NCBI GenBank assembly: GCA_039809245.1
Contig: JBDHUP010000001.1
Location: 100,137 to 164,136, forward strand
From: Minisyncoccia bacterium
GTDB taxonomy: Bacteria; Patescibacteriota; Minisyncoccia; Phycocordibacterales; UBA9973
Reading direction: 5' to 3'
Length of the DNA stretch: 64,000 nt
Shown here piece after piece: positions 5,437 to 50,370 of this stretch (positions are counted from its first letter, which is position 1; each line of letters opens with the position of its first letter). The translations under genes were made by a program, and so were the position numbers. The notes beneath the pieces are model-generated. The model did no database searches and had not been told where the DNA came from. It saw only the letters and a program-made list of their open reading frames with translations.

Positions 5437-7437
5437 TTAAAGAATCTTTAAAAACTCTTTTTCATTTAGAATTTTTACTCCTAATTTCTGGGCATCATTA
5501 TATTTACTACCTGGTTCATCCCCTGCTACCACATAATTTGTAGCTTTAGAAACCGAACTTGATACTTTGCCACCTTGCGATGTGATTTTTGCTTTAGCTT
5601 CATTGCGCCCCATAGATGATAGAGTCCCAGTAAGAACAAAAGTCTGCCCCGTGAGCTTACCACCTTTTGTAACTTTTGCTTTTTCTACAATAACTCCATT
5701 CTCTAAAAGTTTTTTAATAAAATTAATATTTTCTTTCTGTCTAAAGAAATCATTTACACTCTTGGAAACCACAGGCCCAATATTTTCAATACTATTAATA
5801 TCATCAATGCTTGCTTTTGAGATTTTATCTAAAGTTCCAAAATGGTTGGCGATATCTTGAGCTGTTTGCTCCCCTACATGAAGTATTCCAAGGGCATATA
5901 TAAATCGCCAAAGTGGAACTTTCTTATGAGATTCAATTGAAGAAATAATATTCTCAGCAGACTTTTCTCCGAAACGCTCGAGTCCGGATAAATCGGCAGT
6001 CTCTAGAGTGAATAGATCAGCAGTGTCACTTATAAGACCTTCATCTTTTAGGCGATCGAGAATTTTAGGACCAATAGTATATATTTCAAAAATATTTACA
6101 AAGTGCTGCATCCCCCTTCTGTTCTTCGCTGGACAATTCCTATTTGTGCAATAATATGCGACACTTGTTTTCTCTGATTCTCTTTTTTCAACTAGAGAAT
6201 TACACACAGGGCATTTCTCTGGCATTTTAAATTTTTTCTCTTTACCTGTACGCATTTTTACTAAAGTTTCTACAACTTCAGGAATAACATCCCCAGCTTT
6301 TTGAATAACAACTGTATCACCGATACGAATATCGAGCCGATTAATCTGATCCATATTATGGAGTGTAGCTTTAGATATTGTAGATCCTGCAACAAATGTA
6401 GGTTTAAAATGAGCAAGAGGTGTAAGTACTCCTGTTCGCCCAACATTTACAGTTATATCGGTCACAGTGGTTGTAGCGCGTTCTGCTGGATACTTGAAAG
6501 CTACCATATAACGCGGAGCCTTACCGACAACTCCAATAATATCCTGGAGTTCTAATTCATCAACAGATACGACAATACCATCAGTACCATATGGTAATTT
6601 ATCTCGGATTAAACCGACCTCATCTATAAATGAAAATATACCTTCTAGATTCTTAGATTTCTTTTCATAAGGAGCAACTTGAAACCCTAATTCTCTTAAA
6701 TACTTGTGCTCTTCTGAATGTGTTTCAATTTTTAACTTCTCTTTATCAGATTGTAGTTGTTTTATATCCCAAGCAAAGAAATCTAAACCTCTTTCTAAAA
6801 CAATTTTGGGGTCAAGCTGGCGTAGCGACCCTGCGGCTGCATTTCGAGTGTTAGCAAAAGGTATTTTACCCTCACGTTCTTGGATTTTGTTTAATTTACG
6901 CCAAGCTCTTTTGGGCATCACAACCTCACCACGAACTTCTACATACTCGGGAGAGAATTTAAGTTTAAGTGGTATTGTATTTATCATTTTCAAATTCTCA
7001 GTTATATCTTCTCCTATAAATCCATCACCACGAGTTCCACCTTGGGCAAAAGTACCATTTTTATAAATAAGAGATACTGCAAGTCCATCAAGTTTTAATT
7101 CGCAAAAATATGTATGTGGTTTGTCTATTAACTTCTCTACTCTCTTCTCCCAATCTTTTACTTCATCTTTATTAAATGCATCGTTAAGAGATAGCATTCT
7201 TTTCTCATGTTTTAGTTTCTTGAATTTATCAAGAGGCTTCCCTGCCACACGATTAACGGCGCTGTTTATATCAGCATATTTTGGATATTCCTTCTCTAGT
7301 TGAGATAGTTCCCTTGTTAGAGATTCATATATATCATCTGTAGTTTTTGGGTCATTCTCCACATGATATTTAAAACGCAATCTAGAAATCTCTTCCCGAA
7401 GTTTTTGTATTCGGTTTTTAGCTTCGATATCTTTCAT
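5437..7437 (-). CDS. ligA: NAD-dependent DNA ligase
   Basis: 666 aa. Adenylation motif KLDGLAVSL, Zn-finger cysteines, and HhH and BRCT-like C-terminus. Confidence 0.9.
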   Translation of the reverse strand: MKDIEAKNRIQKLREEISRLRFKYHVENDPKTTDDIYESLTRELSQLEKEYPKYADINSAVNRVAGKPLDKFKKLKHEKRMLSLNDAFNKDEVKDWEKRVEKLIDKPHTYFCELKLDGLAVSLIYKNGTFAQGGTRGDGFIGEDITENLKMINTIPLKLKFSPEYVEVRGEVVMPKRAWRKLNKIQEREGKIPFANTRNAAAGSLRQLDPKIVLERGLDFFAWDIKQLQSDKEKLKIETHSEEHKYLRELGFQVAPYEKKSKNLEGIFSFIDEVGLIRDKLPYGTDGIVVSVDELELQDIIGVVGKAPRYMVAFKYPAERATTTVTDITVNVGRTGVLTPLAHFKPTFVAGSTISKATLHNMDQINRLDIRIGDTVVIQKAGDVIPEVVETLVKMRTGKEKKFKMPEKCPVCNSLVEKRESEKTSVAYYCTNRNCPAKNRRGMQHFVNIFEIYTIGPKILDRLKDEGLISDTADLFTLETADLSGLERFGEKSAENIISSIESHKKVPLWRFIYALGILHVGEQTAQDIANHFGTLDKISKASIDDINSIENIGPVVSKSVNDFFRQKENINFIKKLLENGVIVEKAKVTKGGKLTGQTFVLTGTLSSMGRNEAKAKITSQGGKVSSSVSKATNYVVAGDEPGSKYNDAQKLGVKILNEKEFLKIL

Positions 7438-18915: not shown

Positions 18916-19590
18916 GTGGAATTAGGCCTTTCTTTTATTAAATCAATAACTAAATGGGTGCTTAACGTACTATTCCCTGATAAGTGCTTAGGGTGTCGTA
19001 TTAAAGGTGATATTCTATGTTTAAAATGTTCTTACAAGATAAGGAGAGCTGAAAGAGAAACAAAATCTGGTATTTTTGCAGCTTACGATTACAGAGACCC
19101 TATAATAAAGAAGGTCATCTGGAATTTGAAATACTATAAAAGAAAAGATCTTGGTGAAAAGCTTGGTAAAATGCTTTATGAGGCATTAATAGAAGAAGTC
19201 GCAGATATCGAAATTTTTACAAAAGGACAACCTATACTAGTACTACCTGTCCCCCTATCAAGAACCAGAAGGAAATTACGAGGTTATAATCAAGCAGAAA
19301 TAATAGCTGATGGATTCTGTAGTTTAGAGAAAGGTAATAAACTTCAATTAGCAAAAAAAGTTATAGCTAAAAAAATTGATACTCTACCTCAAGCCCGTAT
19401 AACAAACAGAGTAATAAGACTTAAAAATATTCATAATGCATTTCAGATTATTAATACAGATATCATAAAGGGCAGAACCATAATCATAATAGACGATGTG
19501 ACTACCACAGGTGGCACAATCTTAGAAATATCAAAACTACTAAAAAAACACGGGGCTAAAAAAGTAGTCGGTTTTGCGATTGCTCATTAA
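18916..19590 (+). CDS. comF: Competence protein ComF (ComFC-type phosphoribosyltransferase domain with N-terminal Zn-ribbon)
   Basis: CLGCRIKGDILCLKC zinc ribbon. C-terminal PRTase motif IIIDDVTTTGGT. Confidence 0.8.
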   Translation: MELGLSFIKSITKWVLNVLFPDKCLGCRIKGDILCLKCSYKIRRAERETKSGIFAAYDYRDPIIKKVIWNLKYYKRKDLGEKLGKMLYEALIEEVADIEIFTKGQPILVLPVPLSRTRRKLRGYNQAEIIADGFCSLEKGNKLQLAKKVIAKKIDTLPQARITNRVIRLKNIHNAFQIINTDIIKGRTIIIIDDVTTTGGTILEISKLLKKHGAKKVVGFAIAH

Positions 19591-20798
19591 TTATTCCAAA
19601 GGTCCCAAATCATACCAGCTATATTTCGTGGTTTTCCTTCTAAAGCATAATAATGTAAATCTATGAATGGCAGTGTATTACATTCTATTATTCCCCACCT
19701 CTGAGTACCTTGATCTTTTGTTGGATCTGGAATAATACAATCAAATCCAACAACCGAAAGTCCTACAACATTAGCTGCTTTTTCTAAGATTGGAATAAAG
19801 CTTGGATGTAGATCATCTATCATTTCTTTTGTTGTTCCTCCAAATAACCTTCCTATCCTATGAGATAGAGTGAGCAAGAATCCATCGGGTAAAATATCAT
19901 CGATTTTAAATCCAAATTTTGAAATGTGATTATATAATTCATCTCCTAAGCGTATAGCTTCAACTCTATCATTACGCAAAAAATCTTTCTCGTTTATTAA
20001 TTGTCTTATCGTTTTATTTCCATCACCAATCACAAACGGTGCTTGCCCTCTGTAAAAACCTGCTAATTTGCCCCCTACAACAGTTGCCCTACAAACATAT
20101 CCATACAAATTTTCTTCTACAACCAAGTGCGCAGATATTTGGCGTGCTATAGAAACTCCCTCTTTAAATTGTTCGAGTGTTTTTATATTAGTAATTGTAT
20201 GTCTAGCTCGAGAACCAATTTTTGGTTTTACTATAACAGGAGTTTTGAATTTTGAAAAAATACTACTCAAACTTTTGAATCTAATAAGGGGAATAAGTGC
20301 ATATTCAGGTACTGGTATGTCGTATTTTGACAATTCTTTCTTTAAAAGAATTTTATTATCCCAATCTTTTCTAAAGTCTAAAAACTCAGGTTGTATAGGT
20401 ATACTTTCAAAATAGATTGTTTTATTTTTTATTTTCGCTCTATACCAATCCAAGGGTTTCTTCCTTAAAATAATTTGGTCCATTTCTATTCCTCTTTTCC
20501 TTGCTTCATCCCATATTACACGAGATCTAAAAGAACTAGCTTTATCAATATCTGAAGAGAAACTTGCTAATCTAAAGACAATAAGTGCCTTAAAAAGAAA
20601 AGTAGGTATCCAACTTGCAAAATCTTTCAGAAACTTTGGTGCATAATTAGTAACTCTCACCATATGGGAATCACTAATTGATGACACGAAGTTTTCCACA
20701 AAAAAAACCTTGTGATTAACCTGAGCATCTCCACAGTAAGAGCATCTTCCGTTTTTTATAATAGTTGGTTCCAACATTGTACATTTAGTATTATACAC
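19587..20798 (-). CDS. ATP-grasp family ligase (cyanophycin-synthetase-like or RimK-like ATP-grasp domain)
   Basis: Central region reads VIVKPKIGSRARHT...YGYVCRATVVGGKLAGFY..., typical of the ATP-grasp fold. The first ATG is at 20777; the ORF track starts at GTG 20798. Confidence 0.5.
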   Translation of the reverse strand: MYNTKCTMLEPTIIKNGRCSYCGDAQVNHKVFFVENFVSSISDSHMVRVTNYAPKFLKDFASWIPTFLFKALIVFRLASFSSDIDKASSFRSRVIWDEARKRGIEMDQIILRKKPLDWYRAKIKNKTIYFESIPIQPEFLDFRKDWDNKILLKKELSKYDIPVPEYALIPLIRFKSLSSIFSKFKTPVIVKPKIGSRARHTITNIKTLEQFKEGVSIARQISAHLVVEENLYGYVCRATVVGGKLAGFYRGQAPFVIGDGNKTIRQLINEKDFLRNDRVEAIRLGDELYNHISKFGFKIDDILPDGFLLTLSHRIGRLFGGTTKEMIDDLHPSFIPILEKAANVVGLSVVGFDCIIPDPTKDQGTQRWGIIECNTLPFIDLHYYALEGKPRNIAGMIWDLWNN

Positions 20799-20944
20799 AA
20801 AGAGACAGCAATTGCTGTCTCTTTGTGGGCGAAATAAATCGCTTTTAATGGTCTCCTTTTACCATAAAAATAATTCATATTATTACGGTTAATAAACGAC
20901 CCATCTGCATATTGTATCACAGTAAAAATTTAATGTTAAATACT

Positions 20945-25630: not shown

Positions 25631-25717
25631 GGAGACGTGTCAGAGTGGTCTAACGTACCTCCTTGCTAAGGAGGCAGGCTTTAATCGGCCTCGAGAGTTC
25701 GAATCTCTCCGTCTCCG
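25631..25717 (+). tRNA. tRNA-Ser (GCU), type II
   Basis: GGAGACGTGTCAGAGTGGTCTAACGTACCTCCTTGCTAAGGAGGCAGGCTTTAATCGGCCTCGAGAGTTCGAATCTCTCCGTCTCCG. Confidence 0.8.
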
Positions 25718-25727
25718 CACATAAAAA

Positions 25728-25759
25728 ATAAAAGCTTAGTGGGTAACTAAGCTTTTATT
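25728..25759. terminator. Bidirectional terminator hairpin between tRNA-Ser (+) and the arsR-like gene (-)
   Basis: ataaaagcttagt/actaagcttttat inverted repeat flanked by A/T runs. Confidence 0.6.
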
Positions 25760-26078
25760 TTTTATGTGCGAGTTTATGTAAAATGCGACAAGGTTCAACT
25801 ATACGAGGATCTATAATATTATAGTAACCATTTAAACCCTTACGATGAACAGTTACAAGTTTAGCATGGCGAAGCAAGGCTAAATGCTGAGAAACATTCG
25901 CTTTTGAAATACCTAGAGTTTTAACAAGGTCTTCAACTGGCATTTCTTGTTCACGTAATAGGTTTAATATTTCTAAACGTTTTGGATTAGAAAGAATCTT
26001 ATATATTTCAGCATTTCTCTGATATGCAATTCGTGGTAGAGGTTGTTTAATCTTCATAGTTTCTAAAGTATGCAACAA
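25755..26078 (-). CDS. ArsR/SmtB-family HTH transcriptional regulator
   Basis: ILSNPKRLEILNLL...VEDLVKTLGISKANVSQHLALLRHAKLV wHTH motif. Confidence 0.8.
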   Translation of the reverse strand: MLHTLETMKIKQPLPRIAYQRNAEIYKILSNPKRLEILNLLREQEMPVEDLVKTLGISKANVSQHLALLRHAKLVTVHRKGLNGYYNIIDPRIVEPCRILHKLAHKK

Positions 26079-36294: not shown

Positions 36295-36459
36295 TATTAT
36301 TAGTTTTAGATTTTAAAAATTAACCTTATTTTTAGACTATCTATTAAACAAGTTATTGTCAATCAAAATTGTCATCACAAATAATTCCGCACCGTCGTTA
36401 CGGAATTTTTGCGATCCCGGCTCGCAATTTTTCCTACTGGAAAAATAATGCTCCGCCCT

Positions 36460-36509
36460 GGACTACATAGAAAAAGGAGTACGCAGATACTCCTTTTTCT
36501 ATGTAGTCC
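36460..36509. repeat. 50-bp perfect palindrome (22-bp arms, 6-nt loop) abutting the 3' end of tRNA-Ile. A terminator or a MITE-like insertion.
   Basis: ggactacatagaaaaaggagta cgcaga tactcctttttctatgtagtcc. Flanked by tccgccct / tccaccct. Confidence 0.6.
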
Positions 36510-36580
36510 ACCCTCTTGGATTCGAACCAAGGACCCCAGAGGTATAAGCTCTGTGCTCTAACCAACTGAGCTAAGGGTGG
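36507..36580 (-). tRNA. tRNA-Ile (anticodon UAU, reads AUA)
   Basis: Reverse complement is CCACCCTTAGCTCAGTTGGTTAGAGCACAGAGCTTATACCTCTGGGGTCCTTGGTTCGAATCCAAGAGGGTGGA. Anticodon loop is CTTATAC. Confidence 0.75.
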
Positions 36581-38945: not shown

Positions 38946-39146
38946 TTTTAGGGGTTAAATAAATATTTTTGTCCATACTGCCATAATAAGTGATATAAAT
39001 CAATATCTGTGGAGATGGGCTGGACCGTGAGTACACTTGTTGATCCTTACAGGATCTGTACACCTTTTCCATTCGCGATTACACTCATGAGGAAAAGGTC
39101 TTCACCTCCGCCACATAAGCAAAGCAGTTTGCTTGTTCACTCCACA

Positions 39147-39180
39147 ATATAAAAACTCCGCTTGCGCAGAGTTTTTATAT
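39147..39180 (-). terminator. Rho-independent terminator of ssrA
   Basis: aaaaactccgc...gcagagttttt inverted repeat directly downstream of the tmRNA 3' end. Confidence 0.55.
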
Positions 39181-39182
39181 TG

Positions 39183-39578
39183 TGGAGATGGGCGGAGTTG
39201 AACCGCCATGCAAAAGAAGTTCATAGGTGAATCTACATGTTTATCATGTTCGATTGGGTTTAAACGGGAAAGCTAGAGAACAGGCAATATACTTTCGCGC
39301 CGAGCTCTTCATTGTCGGAATTCTATGCAAGCGGTATAAAATTCGTAACCCGATTAATTATGCCTCCCCTATTTATCGGATGTCGATAAGAGAGACACCT
39401 GACCGGCTTAAGTTAAGCGAGTACAGGAGCAAAGTTTAAACCAAATGCGTTAGCAAATGGTGACTTTACTGAAGCGACTTTGTTTGCACTTAGTCTTTTC
39501 CAAGAAGTTTAGAAAGATTCCTGGGTACTTTACATGCACATCTATGAGTGACGTCCTTTGTCGAAGCCCGTCATCCCC
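39183..39578 (-). ncRNA. ssrA: tmRNA (SsrA), standard one-piece form. The tag reading frame at 39413..39487 encodes ANKVASVKSPFANAFGLNFAPVLA-stop.
   Basis: 5' end is GGGGATGACGGGCTTCGAC. 3' end is GGCGGTTCAACTCCGCCCATCTCCA, with acceptor GGGGATG/CATCTCC including the G3:U70 pair. Resume context GACUAAGU GCA AAC matches the E. coli UAGUC GCA AAC context. smpB is adjacent. Confidence 0.85.
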
Positions 39579-41054: not shown

Positions 41055-41897
41055 TTATTTTGTATAGTTCCCTACCTTTGTACGCTTTATGGAGTACGTC
41101 ACTAAAGGTAAGCCTATCTTGTCGCTTATATCTGAAACAAGCTGTCTGATATATGTGCCACTACTGCATTCGGCTACACAAGATACTATCGTATACTCTG
41201 CCTCAGCTGATTGTTTAAATACTTCGTTCCATTTAGCTTTTATATCTTCTTGTCTGAAGTCACCGTGCACTTTCGATAAACGCTCTAATATATCTTTCTG
41301 TAAATCATCTTTGGTCACAGTTCTTTGACTGATAAGTTCAAGTTTATGTATAGCAACTTCATGTTCTGGTAGGTCTTCCGGTAGTTCGTCATCCTTTGAA
41401 AGCTGGAAAAGTTGTTTCCCTCCGATAGTCTTGGATGAAAAGCTCGGGTACTTCTGTATAAAAGTCCCAACAAAAGATTCAAGTTCATATGCGAAGCTGG
41501 AGATGGATTTTGGAATGGTCTGGCCCCGCCCGTCAAATTCTTCGGTGGGGAGATCCGAGGACCTTCCAAAATCCATCTCCAGCGAAGCAGTTTTTTCCAA
41601 AGGACCAGAAATTTTATCTTCTGACGAAGCAACTTTTCCTAGTAAATCATAAGTATCAGTTTCAAATCCAACGAGGATTTCAAATTTGTATGTTTTATCT
41701 AAACCAAGATATTGATCTTTATTCTTACATTCTTCCCCGACAAGTAGAATCATCACCCCTTCAGCCATAGGGTCAAGCCGTCCAGCATAAGTCATAGGTA
41801 TATCAGCTGAAATAGAGTGCTCTTTTCGAACTTTTTCTAGAGATTCTAGGGGTGTCTCCCCTTGGTTTTTATAGGTTATGATGACATTCTCAGGCAT
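41055..41897 (-). CDS. truB: tRNA pseudouridine(55) synthase TruB, with an in-frame insertion of about 33 aa
   Basis: Catalytic motif YAGRLDPMAEGVMILLVG. The insertion (LEMDFGRSSDLPTEEFDGRGQTIPKSI...) coincides with a DNA palindrome. Confidence 0.75.
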   Translation of the reverse strand: MPENVIITYKNQGETPLESLEKVRKEHSISADIPMTYAGRLDPMAEGVMILLVGEECKNKDQYLGLDKTYKFEILVGFETDTYDLLGKVASSEDKISGPLEKTASLEMDFGRSSDLPTEEFDGRGQTIPKSISSFAYELESFVGTFIQKYPSFSSKTIGGKQLFQLSKDDELPEDLPEHEVAIHKLELISQRTVTKDDLQKDILERLSKVHGDFRQEDIKAKWNEVFKQSAEAEYTIVSCVAECSSGTYIRQLVSDISDKIGLPLVTYSIKRTKVGNYTK

Positions 41898-46738: not shown

Positions 46739-49480
46739 TTATCCTTGCTGTCTATACTTATCCATAATCTCGGCTTCGACTTCTTCGCGCTCACGGCCAA
46801 ACTTCAAATATGAAAGCTCTTTAATCTTCTCGACTATCTCTGGTGTCCCTTGTGGTGGTGGAAATGTGGCAATATTGAATGGCTTTGTCGGCTGGCCATT
46901 TATGAGCATCGATATATATGCATTACGATTCTCAATTTTCATAATATCAGCTGCAGAGAATACAGGCTTGAATTTGTTTTCGAGGAATTGCGCATCTTCG
47001 CCACCGACTCGGAACACAGCCATAGAACCAACGTTGCCGAAAACAGCATCTCGAATATTCTCTTCAAGTTGAGCTATATACTGGTGAGCAACAGTTAGAG
47101 ATAAGCGGTACTTACGAGCTTCAGATAGAATAGATTCTATGGAGTCAGTAGTCACGTTTTGGAACTCGTCTATATACAAGAAGAAGTCTTCCATTTTTTT
47201 ACCATACATATCTACACGAGAAAGCGCGGCCATTTGTATCTTGTTTACAATTAAAAGACCTATTAGATTCGCATTTATATCGCCAAGGCGTCCTTTCGAA
47301 AGGTTCACAAGCAAAATCTTTTTATTATCCATGATATCTCGGAAGTTGAACACTGATTTCTCTTGAAGGACCACAGGGCGCATGATGTCATTCGAAATAA
47401 AATTATCGAATTTTGAAGTGATATATGGCACGAAGTTGGCAATAGATTGATCACCTGTTGTTTGCTCTGCACTCCTCCAGAACTGAGTTATTATTGGGTT
47501 CTTACAGTGTGAAAGCTTCATATCACGGAATTCTTTATCCGCAAGAACGCGACCAATCTCAAGTAAAGTTGCTCCAGATTCAGGATGCTCCATCACAAGG
47601 AAAGCTGAGTTTTTGAAATACTGTTCGAACATTGGACCTCCAGATGTCTTCATATCAAAAAGCTTGTTAAAGATATTCATTAATTCGTTAACTACAAAAG
47701 TCTTCTGCTCTGGATACTTTGGATCATACTCAAGCATATTGAGCCCCATAGGTCGCGCTGTGTAAGCCGGATCGAAATAAATAACGTCGTCAATTCGCTC
47801 TTTTGGAATGTAGCTAAGAATATCTTGGATATCTGTACCATGCGGATCAATATAACAAACTCCGTGACCGGCTTTGATATCCTGAGCGATCATATTCTTC
47901 ATAATTGTAGTCTTTCCTGTACCTGTTTGACCTATAACATACAAATGGCGCATTCGATCTTCATCAGCAAAGTGTACTTCGGTATCTTTCCCTCTATAAC
48001 TATTTATACCGAGCTTAATACCTTCTGATCCCATCTCTATTGGAGCAGGGGCTATGCCAGCACGAGCTTGTTTGAGCTGAGGAGAGACGATGCCATATGG
48101 GAAGTGAAAGATTGTAGCAAGCTCTTTGAGATTTAGTGGCATAGAATACTTCTGTGAAAACATACGATATGAGAAATCGTGAACCAGTGCATTCAAGTCA
48201 GAACCTTGTGGGTGATTAAAATTAAAACTATTACGGTGTGATTCAGTGAATTGATTAAAAGAAGATTCAATATCAGCTAGAATCTGATCCGCGCGAGTTT
48301 TGCTTTCCGCCGAAGCAACGATACGAATATTGGCAGCCATTATAGTACTCTTCATTTTCTCTGTAATGCTTTCTATCGCTTTGTCGTTGATCTTTTTCTC
48401 TTCTTTTTCTTTTGATTCACCGAAAATCATGCCTTTTGCTAACTTACCGAACTCTTTACCGAATTGACGAACAACACTAGAAGCTGTTTTAACTGACATT
48501 CCCTCTTTGACATCACCTAATATAGTGTGGAATTTTTTTATTATTTCATCATCCTCTGGACATATTGTGAATTGTATTGAGGCTCCTTCACCAGACTTCT
48601 TAAGTTTAGTGAAAACATTAAGAATTATATTTAGTGGATCGTGGTCTATGGCGTCATATAATTTGATAGGATAGACCTCGTAAGAATCAAGGGTGGCATA
48701 AGAAGCTGAGATGGCTCCCCCTTCGGAGAAAATATTATAATCATCAGGCACTTCGACAATCTTGGCATGAGAATGGACTCCGAGTAACTGTTTCTCAAAT
48801 AGATCAGCTTTATGAGTAGGGACAGCTGTGTAGAATATAAAATGGTCAGTATCTTCTGCTAGAGCAATCTCGAGAGTAAAGTGATTACGGTTATAATTCT
48901 CACGACCTTCACCGACTGAATGCATACCGGCATAGAACTGCTCCATAGCTGAAAGTAACTCCTTTAAACTTTTCTTATTCTTCTCATCATCTTCTGGGTC
49001 AGGTAGAGTGATCTCGAAAAGCTTCATATCTAGAGATTTAAACAGTGGTGTTCCCTCCTTGAGTCCTGGAATCTTATGTGTACTATATAAATACTGGACT
49101 AAGAAACGATGGAAATCATCATCTAGATGGGGATTATTCATCTTACTTATTACAGAAAGAGCGCTAGATATACCTTTACTTAGAAGGACTCCTAGCATTT
49201 CCTCCATTTTATTATCATGTGACTCTGGGTGAAGACGAAGAACAAGCTTTTCTTCTTCTCCTTCTTTCATTACCACATTCTTATGCATTACTTCGTGTGG
49301 TTCAAGCTTTTTGTACTCTTGGATTACATCGTGAGCGAGTGCTTCCTTCGAATATTCTTGACCTTGTTCGCTTAGAGATCTTTCTTTCTCGGCGAGATGC
49401 GCACGTAAAAATTCAAGCTCCTCTTGTGGAGTTTTGAACTTTGGAGCATTGTTTAAATTAAAACCTTCCATTGTATTCAT
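46739..49480 (-). CDS. Large P-loop NTPase of the VirD4/TraG/HerA-FtsK-like superfamily, preceded by a roughly 470-aa N-terminal region of unknown function
   Basis: Walker A VIGQTGTGKTT. Walker B FFLYIDEF. Arginine-finger-like YRLSLTVAHQ. 913 aa. Confidence 0.45.
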   Translation of the reverse strand: MNTMEGFNLNNAPKFKTPQEELEFLRAHLAEKERSLSEQGQEYSKEALAHDVIQEYKKLEPHEVMHKNVVMKEGEEEKLVLRLHPESHDNKMEEMLGVLLSKGISSALSVISKMNNPHLDDDFHRFLVQYLYSTHKIPGLKEGTPLFKSLDMKLFEITLPDPEDDEKNKKSLKELLSAMEQFYAGMHSVGEGRENYNRNHFTLEIALAEDTDHFIFYTAVPTHKADLFEKQLLGVHSHAKIVEVPDDYNIFSEGGAISASYATLDSYEVYPIKLYDAIDHDPLNIILNVFTKLKKSGEGASIQFTICPEDDEIIKKFHTILGDVKEGMSVKTASSVVRQFGKEFGKLAKGMIFGESKEKEEKKINDKAIESITEKMKSTIMAANIRIVASAESKTRADQILADIESSFNQFTESHRNSFNFNHPQGSDLNALVHDFSYRMFSQKYSMPLNLKELATIFHFPYGIVSPQLKQARAGIAPAPIEMGSEGIKLGINSYRGKDTEVHFADEDRMRHLYVIGQTGTGKTTIMKNMIAQDIKAGHGVCYIDPHGTDIQDILSYIPKERIDDVIYFDPAYTARPMGLNMLEYDPKYPEQKTFVVNELMNIFNKLFDMKTSGGPMFEQYFKNSAFLVMEHPESGATLLEIGRVLADKEFRDMKLSHCKNPIITQFWRSAEQTTGDQSIANFVPYITSKFDNFISNDIMRPVVLQEKSVFNFRDIMDNKKILLVNLSKGRLGDINANLIGLLIVNKIQMAALSRVDMYGKKMEDFFLYIDEFQNVTTDSIESILSEARKYRLSLTVAHQYIAQLEENIRDAVFGNVGSMAVFRVGGEDAQFLENKFKPVFSAADIMKIENRNAYISMLINGQPTKPFNIATFPPPQGTPEIVEKIKELSYLKFGREREEVEAEIMDKYRQQG

Positions 49481-49602
49481 TATATCATAACGAAAAAAAC
49501 TACATACTTTTAAATAAGCTCGAGAGCGCGACGGCGCGAACGATTGAGTAAATTTTAAGCTTCAAAATTTACGTGTCATTTAAAAATATGTAGTTTTAGA
49601 AC

Positions 49603-50370
49603 CTAAGCGATAGTTAAAATCTCCGCTTCACCTTCTGTTATTAGAACCGTGTGCTCAAAGTGAGCACTGCGAGAACCATCGGCAGTTTTAATAGTGTATC
49701 CATCAGACATACTTATAATCCCAGCTTTACCTATATTGAGCATTGGTTCTATAGCTACTACCATACCAGGAATAAGTTTCTGCCCTTTGCCTTTTTTACC
49801 AAAGTTTGGAATATATGGATCTTCGTGGATTTTCTTCCCTACTCCATGACCAGATAGCTCACGAACGATACCATACTTCTTCCCAACAAACTTCTCTATC
49901 GCATAGCCTATATCTCCTACTGTATTACCGCCTTTCGCTTGCTCTATTCCCACTAGGAGTGCTTCGTGTGTAATCTCGAGGAGCTTTTGTGAATCTTTAT
50001 TTATCTTACCGACTGGGACAGTCATGGCGTGGTCAGTAAATAGGCCTTTGTGCTTTAGTCCGAGATCAATAGAAATAATATCTCCTTCTTTAAGAATTCT
50101 ACTTTCTTTTGGAATACCGTGAACTATCTCGTTATTTACTGACGTACAGAGCGAGGCAGGATAAGCTTTCGGATGGCCTTCAGGTTTATAGTTTAAGAAA
50201 GCTGGCTCATCTCCACCCTCTTTTATGAGTTTATAAGCATAATCATCGAGCTCCTTTGTAGTCACTCCTGGAGCCACTTTCTTCGCCACCTGCGCCAAAA
50301 TAGAAGCAAGCCTATGCCCCCCTTCCCTTATAATCTCTATTTCTTCAGGCGTTTTAATGATAACTGCCAT
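49603..50370 (-). CDS. map: Methionine aminopeptidase type I
   Basis: Pita-bread fold metal ligands (D...D...H...E...E) in the canonical order. 255 aa. Confidence 0.9.
   Translation of the reverse strand: MAVIIKTPEEIEIIREGGHRLASILAQVAKKVAPGVTTKELDDYAYKLIKEGGDEPAFLNYKPEGHPKAYPASLCTSVNNEIVHGIPKESRILKEGDIISIDLGLKHKGLFTDHAMTVPVGKINKDSQKLLEITHEALLVGIEQAKGGNTVGDIGYAIEKFVGKKYGIVRELSGHGVGKKIHEDPYIPNFGKKGKGQKLIPGMVVAIEPMLNIGKAGIISMSDGYTIKTADGSRSAHFEHTVLITEGEAEILTIA

Follow-up and report, generated by a model that had tools for sequence, protein, structure and literature searches.

Patescibacteria have tiny genomes that are thought to hold little repetitive DNA, and a repeat family found mainly inside their essential genes bears on how selfish or structured DNA persists under extreme streamlining. 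The attC sites of integrons are used as a folded single strand with extrahelical bases; their stem sequence is free, one strand is active and their length is variable. Their outer R boxes are conserved and their centre is variable, and they are located at cassette boundaries and require the integron integrase.

The RPEs of Rickettsia are small non-coding palindromes, scattered through a reduced genome and found in-frame in unrelated housekeeping genes, where they encode a tolerated peptide segment (Ogata et al. 2000, summarised in PMC10969869). The class of REPs tagged with CGTC includes the Rickettsia elements RPE-4 and RPE-6 (Di Nocera et al. 2013, PMC3733652). REPs and REPINs are hairpins thought to be handled as ssDNA; they lie between genes and are sometimes intragenic, in which case they encode 20–30 aa (PMC3733652). 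Bacterial MITEs, such as Correia, ERIC and BOX, are short, non-autonomous elements with inverted repeats that occasionally form in-frame ORF fusions; their terminal inverted repeats are conserved and bind the transposase, and target-site duplications lie at their borders (PMC10969869). Finally, intragenic invertons and the coding palindromes of Nematomorpha mitochondria place inverted repeats within functional coding sequence, where the frame stays open despite the hairpin (PMC6649704).

The palindrome analysed here lies within truB in a 64-kb stretch of Patescibacteria DNA, referred to below as the window. In its behaviour the element resembles RPEs and intragenic REPs, yet it lacks defining features of RPEs, of REPs and of MITEs. 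The hairpin repeat family is apparently undescribed so far: a literature search that included the core sequence itself found no description of it in Patescibacteria.

The palindrome in truB

The host gene truB (positions 41055–41897 of the window, minus strand) encodes a tRNA pseudouridine-55 synthase of 280 aa without a PUA domain, as identified from its ORF, Pfam, PDB and homologues. Its product matches Pfam TruB_N (E = 9e-22) as well as TruB entries in PDB, and the nearest of its 3077 homologues come from Patescibacteria and Paceibacterota MAGs. Within the gene, two arms of 20 nt each, GCTGGAGATGGATTTTGGAA (41496–41515) and TTCCAAAATCCATCTCCAGC (41564–41583), are 100% complementary and enclose a 48-nt spacer. 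The truB frame is open through the palindrome, which corresponds to residues 105–134 (...S LEMDFG RSSDLPTEEFDGRGQT IPKSIS S...). Neither arm has a match at up to 3 mismatches elsewhere in the 64-kb window, and 100 shuffles gave 0 matches. The region forms a G+C-rich island (54% vs roughly 30–45% in the flanks); its predicted folding energy is −57.3 kcal/mol as RNA of the truB sense strand (z = −7.7 vs shuffled controls) and −32.4 kcal/mol as DNA (z = −6.3). The preliminary description of an in-frame truB palindrome with 20-nt arms and a 48-nt spacer thus stands, borne out by the exact complementarity, the single occurrence in the window and the fold z-scores.

In two Logan assemblies from separate runs (SRR23083766 and SRR19427084), truB and 1,993 nt of its surroundings show zero differences, so the palindrome is not an artefact of a single assembly, and its reality is confirmed. 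A chance palindrome or an assembly artefact, in favour of which only the general caution over metagenome assemblies can be cited, is excluded by the shuffles (0 of 100), the identical independent assemblies and the homologous elements in orthologues.

The complete hairpin element (88 bp, 41496–41583, plus strand) is recognized by covariance model R1 with 76.9 bits (E = 2e-17), and its plus strand, antisense to truB, is the strand that pairs better across the hairpin family. The outer part of the left arm (41496–41515), about 12 bp, is locus-specific, and the inner part, about 8 bp (TTTTGGAA), is semi-conserved family-wide. The conserved core segment GGTCTGGCC (41517–41525, plus strand), the reverse complement of GGCCAGACC, precedes a variable inner hairpin of 23 nt (41526–41548), a subfamily marker that is near-identical in the closest truB orthologues (P0002 and P0008). 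The second conserved core segment, GGAGATCCGAGGACC (41549–41563, plus strand), is the reverse complement of GGTCCTCGGATCTCC and adjoins the right arm (41564–41583), the exact reverse complement of the left arm. A direct repeat, GCGAAGC (GCTTCGC on the truB strand), flanks the element, with copy 1 at 41491–41497, overlapping the arm by 2 nt, and copy 2 at 41582–41588; at 7 nt, and with the copies 91 nt apart, it is among the best examples of boundary repeats in the family.

Directly upstream of the complete copy in truB lies an older, truncated copy (41601–41629, minus strand) that belongs to the short size class and reads CTTCG-TCAGAAGATAAAATTTCT-GGTCCT on the truB strand. It consists of a left arm and the start of a core, encodes TruB residues ~92–100, and its arm also borders complete short copies in three orthologues (P0017, P0023 and P0029). 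Compared with the TruB of T. maritima, the protein has ~33 additional residues between query positions 92 and 139. The insertion size given in the preliminary description, about 33 aa, therefore holds, but the insertion is composite: ~30 aa derive from the palindrome and ~13 aa (residues 92–104) from the truncated copy. No second true copy was found in the window, either with the arms and core halves at up to 3 mismatches or with model R1 run with filters off. The weaker matches in the window are ordinary terminator-like hairpins.

An AlphaFold2 model of TruB built from a 50-sequence alignment has a confident fold (mean pLDDT 86.8), in which residues 93–131 show pLDDT values of 41–52 and no secondary structure. 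This predicted disorder supports the view that TruB tolerates the encoded segment as a loop. In the same set of 50 aligned TruB homologues, the insertion loop is hypervariable and distant orthologues lack the element. Two loop peptides recur, RSSDL...GQT and VWP...RRSEDL, the second being what the opposite strand of the window palindrome would encode.

Distribution and anatomy of the hairpin family

Further copies of the 20-bp arms, the search for which had been proposed in the preliminary description, are absent from the window; the shared part is instead a core dispersed in Patescibacteria. This core is bipartite, A-GGTCCTCGGATCTCC-[variable hairpin, 12–40 nt]-GGCCAGACC-AT, and the arms flanking it differ among copies and stay complementary. 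A scan of one genome per species matched the core in at least 118 genomic stretches. All but one of the matches listed were labelled Patescibacteria-type or unclassified, with labels that include Paceibacterota, Nomurabacteria, Adlerbacteria, Kaiserbacteria and Minisyncoccia. Many automated "Saccharibacteria" labels on core-bearing contigs look doubtful, since both TruB and the gene order around it are common to those contigs and Paceibacteria. Exact-core copies number up to six per genome among the matches listed, and the density is about one canonical copy per 45–64 kb. The covariance model added 11 further variant copies in the same loci, including a short class with a ~28-nt core; the minimal consensus is AGGTCCTCGG...CCAGACC. 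No match turned up in viral contigs, whether the core pattern was exact or relaxed, so nothing points to a phage vector. In Rfam 15 (E up to 10), the best hit, a plant miRNA hairpin model, reached 18.5 bits vs a gathering score of 117.

Alignment of 93 copies shows that the element is one long irregular hairpin. Its layers, from the outside in, are an outer stem, most often 20–21 bp long, a GGUC:GACC helix, a CUC bulge, GG:CC, an AUCU bulge, CC:GG and a variable inner hairpin; the 3' side carries a single bulged A. In these copies, 79.7% of the cells are paired, vs 58% in shuffles and 33–48% in controls with slid partners, and all 22 of the 22 variable outer pairs have changes on both sides. 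Beyond the core, only 8–9 nt are shared (TTTnnTCA / ATTCnnAAA). In 68 non-orthologous pairs with near-identical inner hairpins, flank identity is at background past 8–9 nt from the core, so the outer ~12 bp of every stem is locus-specific.

The layout differs from those described for RPEs, REPs and MITEs. RPEs are ~100–150 bp long and conserved over their full length, whereas the Patescibacteria element shares only the ~24-nt bipartite core and the 8–9-nt flanks. REP stems measure 5–13 bp, compared with 20–21 bp plus a bulged core here. MITEs have conserved termini, while here the termini are variable and the centre is conserved; putative duplications at the borders are also inconsistent, and no parent IS was found in the fetched loci (~0.9 Mb). 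The resemblance to attC sites is an analogy of logic only; the Patescibacteria element lies mostly inside ORFs and its centre is conserved.

The outer boundaries are enriched for a CTTC(G) motif, which occurs at both ends as a direct repeat (41 and 32 of 124 copies, vs ~5 expected). It takes the place of the tag that characterizes REPs: of the 124 left boundaries, 3 have GTAG and 13 have CGTC. The neighbourhoods of two intergenic copies (L066 and L068) contain no gene for a RAYT (Y1 transposase). Exact boundary repeats of at least 5 nt are present in 10 of 73 copies, with spacings of 81–104 nt that are not always a multiple of 3, and are too rare and too irregularly spaced to decide on target-site duplication. 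Concerted evolution of the inner hairpins within a genome was rejected as a general rule: no two of the six copies in DATKGV01 are alike, nor are any two of the four in JAPLXP01. Also discarded was the idea that the arms are overwritten host sequence: the whole hairpin is extra DNA in UvrD (filled vs empty site) and in PheS (L076 vs canonical spacing), although the orthologues compared are too diverged to define junctions.

Host genes, turnover and strand asymmetry

Most copies are genic: of the 124 distinct copies, 94 are located in an ORF of 100 codons or more that continues through them. In-frame insertion into unrelated protein-coding genes, as in RPEs, is seen here in ~29 gene families, and the genic share of ~75% differs from REPs, which are mostly extragenic. 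The hosts related to DNA replication and repair are PolA, DnaE, LigA, UvrA, UvrB, UvrC, UvrD, RecG, RecJ, a HhH-GPD glycosylase and ComM; those related to tRNA or rRNA modification are TruB, Dus, TGT, TrmD, TsaD, MnmA, the CCA-adding enzyme and a RsmI-like methylase; and those related to aminoacylation are PheS, PheT, LeuRS, IleRS and GatA. The remaining hosts are YchF, a class-V aminotransferase, a TrwB-like protein, an M50 peptidase and an FAD oxidase, so that about 24–27 of the ~29 host families act on DNA or on tRNA/rRNA. The same bias was described for intragenic REPs in other phyla, whose hosts include uvrABCD, polA and tRNA pseudouridine synthase genes, as do those of the Patescibacteria element (PMC3733652). 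The question behind this old observation can thus be tested in a second, independent system. Among the intergenic copies, those in L066 and L068 occupy the gaps between ftsK, a small gene and recA.

The GGTCC strand of the element is the coding strand in 72 genic copies and the reverse in 22 (p = 2e-7), and reading frames are distributed 31/23/16 in the sense and 11/6/5 in the antisense orientation. All six frames are therefore represented, and no peptide is conserved. In this respect the element departs from RPEs, in which a family is defined by a conserved peptide in one frame (PMC10969869), whereas here it is the nucleotides that are conserved across six frames; RPEs belong to a different phylum, and the two were compared by description. 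Stop codons are absent from the conserved core in every frame, and the core together with the inner hairpin can be read in all six frames without a stop in 41% of copies vs 8% of shuffles. In the window palindrome, 5 of 6 frames are open, including the plus-strand frame KLEMDFGMVWPRPSNSSVGRSEDLPKSISSE, which has no stop, so that the segment between the inverted repeats can be translated both ways, as in an inverton. The Nematomorpha palindromes differ in that their arms encode conserved protein regions and they do not form a dispersed family with a common core (PMC6649704).

The truB site is a hotspot of the hairpin family. About 40 orthologues carry a family member there, and more distant orthologues are empty. 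Long-class copies occupy the site in four states (frames S0, S1, S2 and A2), and short-class copies are found there in either orientation. Element orientation varies (L003, L055, L060 and L115), that of L003 being opposite to the window. Other genes show comparable turnover. Site 1 of UvrD is filled in L116, with a CTTCG-to-CTTCG spacing of 81 nt (27 codons), and empty in L041, and site 2 is reversed; one LeuRS site is occupied in opposite orientations; and at the PolA site the same arms surround different central units (L010 vs L051, L056 and L059). L125 mirrors the window: there the long copy is the truncated one, and a complete short copy comes after it. The nested copies in the window and in L125 suggest that new copies seem to insert into, or partly replace, resident ones.

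The preliminary description held that the same segment without palindromic symmetry in close relatives would speak against an inserted palindrome. Close orthologues instead keep the symmetry through paired changes in both arms: the truB arms do not vary in length, and at the roughly one third of positions where they differ the opposite arm has changed to match. Among these orthologous copies, the inner hairpin varies less than the arms do. The core is intact across orthologues with 57–67% protein identity and in different frames, and adjacent codons vary freely, which indicates that conservation acts on nucleotides.

The clearest rearrangement concerns two TruB homologues, P0023 and P0029, which are 87% identical in protein and 97% identical over the first 270 nt of truB. 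Between identical 18-nt arms, a 26-nt loop is inverted: once one of the two loops is reverse-complemented, 21 of 26 positions agree. This suggests that the sequence enclosed by the arms inverts in situ over short periods. In both genes the core has decayed, with no visible consequence. This recent flip, the two orientations at orthologous sites, a spacer of 48 nt that is a multiple of 3 and the five open frames across the hairpin would all suit an intragenic inverton, in which the 20-bp inverted repeats serve to flip the 48-bp segment on purpose (phase variation) and recode the TruB loop. We consider such a programmed switch improbable. Three independent assemblies of the organism have a single orientation, and the protein collection holds no flipped variant of the window TruB, the next match after the identical P0001 having 67% identity. 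Moreover, the loop that would be recoded is predicted by AlphaFold2 to be disordered, and the same architecture in ~30 housekeeping gene families and in intergenic DNA argues for passive repeat-mediated flipping instead.

The two strands of the element are not equivalent. Isolated arm mismatches in well-paired copies are A.C in 40 cases and G.T in 5 when read on the GGTCC strand (p = 8e-8), an excess that corresponds to wobble pairs on the complementary strand. That strand, GGTCTGGCC...GGAGATCCGAGGACC, has the more stable fold in 115 of 124 copies (63 of 72 sense-genic, 22 of 22 antisense-genic and 29 of 29 intergenic), and the asymmetry tracks the element rather than the host gene or the local GC skew. 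A palindrome that exists only as duplex would show no such asymmetry, which suggests that the state under selection is one particular strand in single-stranded form, either ssDNA or RNA. The idea of RNA-level selection acting on the mRNA strand was considered and rejected, the G.U-type mismatches sitting on the opposite strand. Orientation relative to the replication strand gave no support for coupling in a GC skew test with 8-kb windows, which are dominated by coding-strand skew, the local GC skew following the host gene.

These data also bear on the suggestion, made in the preliminary description, that the palindrome is an RNA-level regulatory structure of truB. A cis-regulatory hairpin specific to this gene, e.g. 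a translational pause or processing site, would be in keeping with the high stability of the fold in truB mRNA reported above, but we regard it as very improbable. The element occurs in many other genes, distant TruB orthologues lack it, either orientation is found in truB (L003, L055, L060 and L115), no Rfam family matches it and, family-wide, the strand in mRNA sense pairs worse; of the 94 genic copies, 72 have their better-pairing strand on the antisense side.

Probable spread and persistence of the element

The palindrome is a copy of a dispersed, non-coding hairpin repeat of Patescibacteria (Paceibacteria/Parcubacteria), and on the whole it appears rather likely that this repeat behaves as a selfish, non-autonomous element surviving in genes. 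The element, or at least its central unit of 55–75 nt, would spread or be exchanged between loci through a single-stranded hairpin of one strand, an intermediate that may be handled by an enzyme supplied in trans. Copies would last only where an in-frame loop is tolerated, mainly in low-abundance enzymes that act on DNA and tRNA. Survival inside genes would be possible because the core is free of stops and the element sits in tolerant loops. The complementarity of the arms could be maintained by selection on the hairpin, by intramolecular template switching or by both, and the inverted arms would allow the central segment to flip in place, giving rise to the orientation differences among orthologues.

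The evidence for a selfish element comprises its dispersion, the read-through in six frames, presence/absence sites, near-identical inner hairpins at non-orthologous loci, nested copies, the loop flip, the strand asymmetry and the predicted disorder. Much of it equally bears out the proposal in the preliminary description of a small palindromic element tolerated in-frame, which is now backed by a core in at least 118 loci; from these patterns, we infer that the element is mobile. There is precedent in the intragenic RPE and REP elements (PMC10969869, PMC3733652), among whose hosts are uvrABCD, polA and genes for tRNA pseudouridine synthases. Against a selfish element stand the internal position of the conserved part and the locus-specific ends, the opposite of a classical MITE, together with the rarity of exact flanking direct repeats. 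No transposase or autonomous relative was found, and no split halves enclosing an ORF, in ~0.9 Mb of fetched loci, and the searches of viral contigs likewise came up empty. The truB core that stays intact across diverged orthologues would require frequent replacement if the element were a decaying parasite, and otherwise points to function; the host bias towards DNA and tRNA enzymes could likewise reflect function instead of tolerance.

A function for the host is the alternative that deserves most attention, although we think it unlikely. The bulged core would then be a recognition site for a host protein, on ssDNA or (antisense) RNA, that marks or regulates genes for DNA repair, replication, tRNA modification and aminoacylation, and read-through would be a side effect. 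A conserved internal loop between covarying helices is the usual signature of functional structure, and the retention of the truB core in different frames, the strand-specific wobble tolerance that follows the element and not the host gene, and the concentration on hosts acting on DNA, tRNA or rRNA all agree with a signal. Such a signal is harder to reconcile with copies in both orientations and in intergenic gaps, with sites gained, lost and truncated among relatives, with the decay of the core in P0023 and P0029 and with the low density of copies. Nor does any Rfam family match, and in most genic copies it is the antisense strand that pairs better. The host bias is shared by unrelated intragenic REPs, and tolerance explains it equally well (PMC3733652).

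Beyond the selfish, non-autonomous repeat that we favour, the data leave some room, which we judge to be small, for a strand-specific hairpin system of a different kind. In such a system, a 55–75-nt cassette formed by the core and the inner hairpin would be exchanged into locus-specific stems by an enzyme acting on ssDNA or RNA; or the hairpin may have been adopted by the host as an ssDNA or antisense-RNA signal, carried in the coding part of most Paceibacteria genes for DNA repair and tRNA handling. A strand-specific structure with locus-specific stems offers a lead to the machinery of mobilization or recognition.

For the annotation of CPR proteins, the core and covariance model R1 provide a short marker with which such segments can be annotated or masked. 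The element generates lineage-specific protein loops that can be mistaken for adaptive features. The flipping loops amount to a natural experiment on the insertion tolerance of TruB, PolA, LigA and PheT. For the TruB of the window, the peptides expected from a translated insert include LEMDFGR and SSDLPTEEFDGR.

A second, truncated copy at truB

Directly upstream of the complete 88-bp hairpin repeat in truB (41496-41583), a truncated, older copy belonging to the short size class of the repeat family, the variant with a core of about 28 nt, lies on the minus strand at 41601-41629. It is made up of CTTCG, the left arm TCAGAAGATAAAATTTCT and GGTCCT. The mirror image of this pair of truncated and complete copies is found in L125, the genomic stretch whose truB encodes the homologue P0017.

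The C-terminal PUA domain is absent from the window's TruB (41055-41897) and from its relatives. These proteins also carry a second insertion, at residues ~187-237 in the window's TruB, consisting of two helices (196-209 and 216-229) and well folded (pLDDT >90). This two-helix insertion is conserved in all 50 homologues, and it is a protein feature, not a repeat element.

Host genes and intergenic copies

Among the listed loci (L005-L122), enzymes acting on DNA or on tRNA/rRNA account for ~24-27 of ~29 distinct host gene families. The same bias towards DNA and tRNA/rRNA enzymes has been reported for the hosts of intragenic REPs in other phyla (PMC3733652). The LeuRS of L008 (1990-5037) has a NUDIX domain (PF00293, E = 7e-13) embedded at residues 407-537.

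Copies also occupy intergenic gaps in two Nomurabacteria stretches, L066 (3047-3137 and 3614-3704) and L068 (3624-3714, 4776-4875 and 5231-5330), where they fill the successive gaps that separate ftsK, a 114-aa gene and recA, and all of them share the orientation of the genes. This arrangement hints at a REP-like role or, alternatively, at tolerance at gene ends.

Other hairpins and palindromes

In the UvrC gene of L007 (ORF 5935-7296), the segment encoding NRENFSVFTPKGHYADKNFHGS forms a hairpin with the architecture of the repeat family and 19-bp arms, and its core, GTCTTTACCCCAAAGGGGCACTACGCCGAT, is unrelated to that of the family. The hairpin occupies the same site as the canonical unit, with the conserved bipartite core, in the UvrC orthologue of L093. 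More hairpin families of this kind may exist.

In the window, the gap separating two minus-strand genes (46739-49480 and 49603-50370) is filled exactly by a palindromic element of 102 bp (49496-49597), whose 20-nt arms are 95% complementary and whose 62-nt spacer is G+C-rich. This element has a core unlike that of the repeat family and reaches just 18 bits with R1, the family's covariance model. Three unusually long, perfect or near-perfect hairpins (25716-25770, 36459-36510 and 39140-39187), with stems of 22-25 bp and loops of 4-6 nt, are read through by no long ORF; they are probably terminators, though far longer than usual. Finally, a spacer-free perfect palindrome of 32 bp at 20796-20827, CACAAAGAGACAGCAA|TTGCTGTCTCTTTGTG, covers the start codon of the minus-strand ORF 19587-20798.
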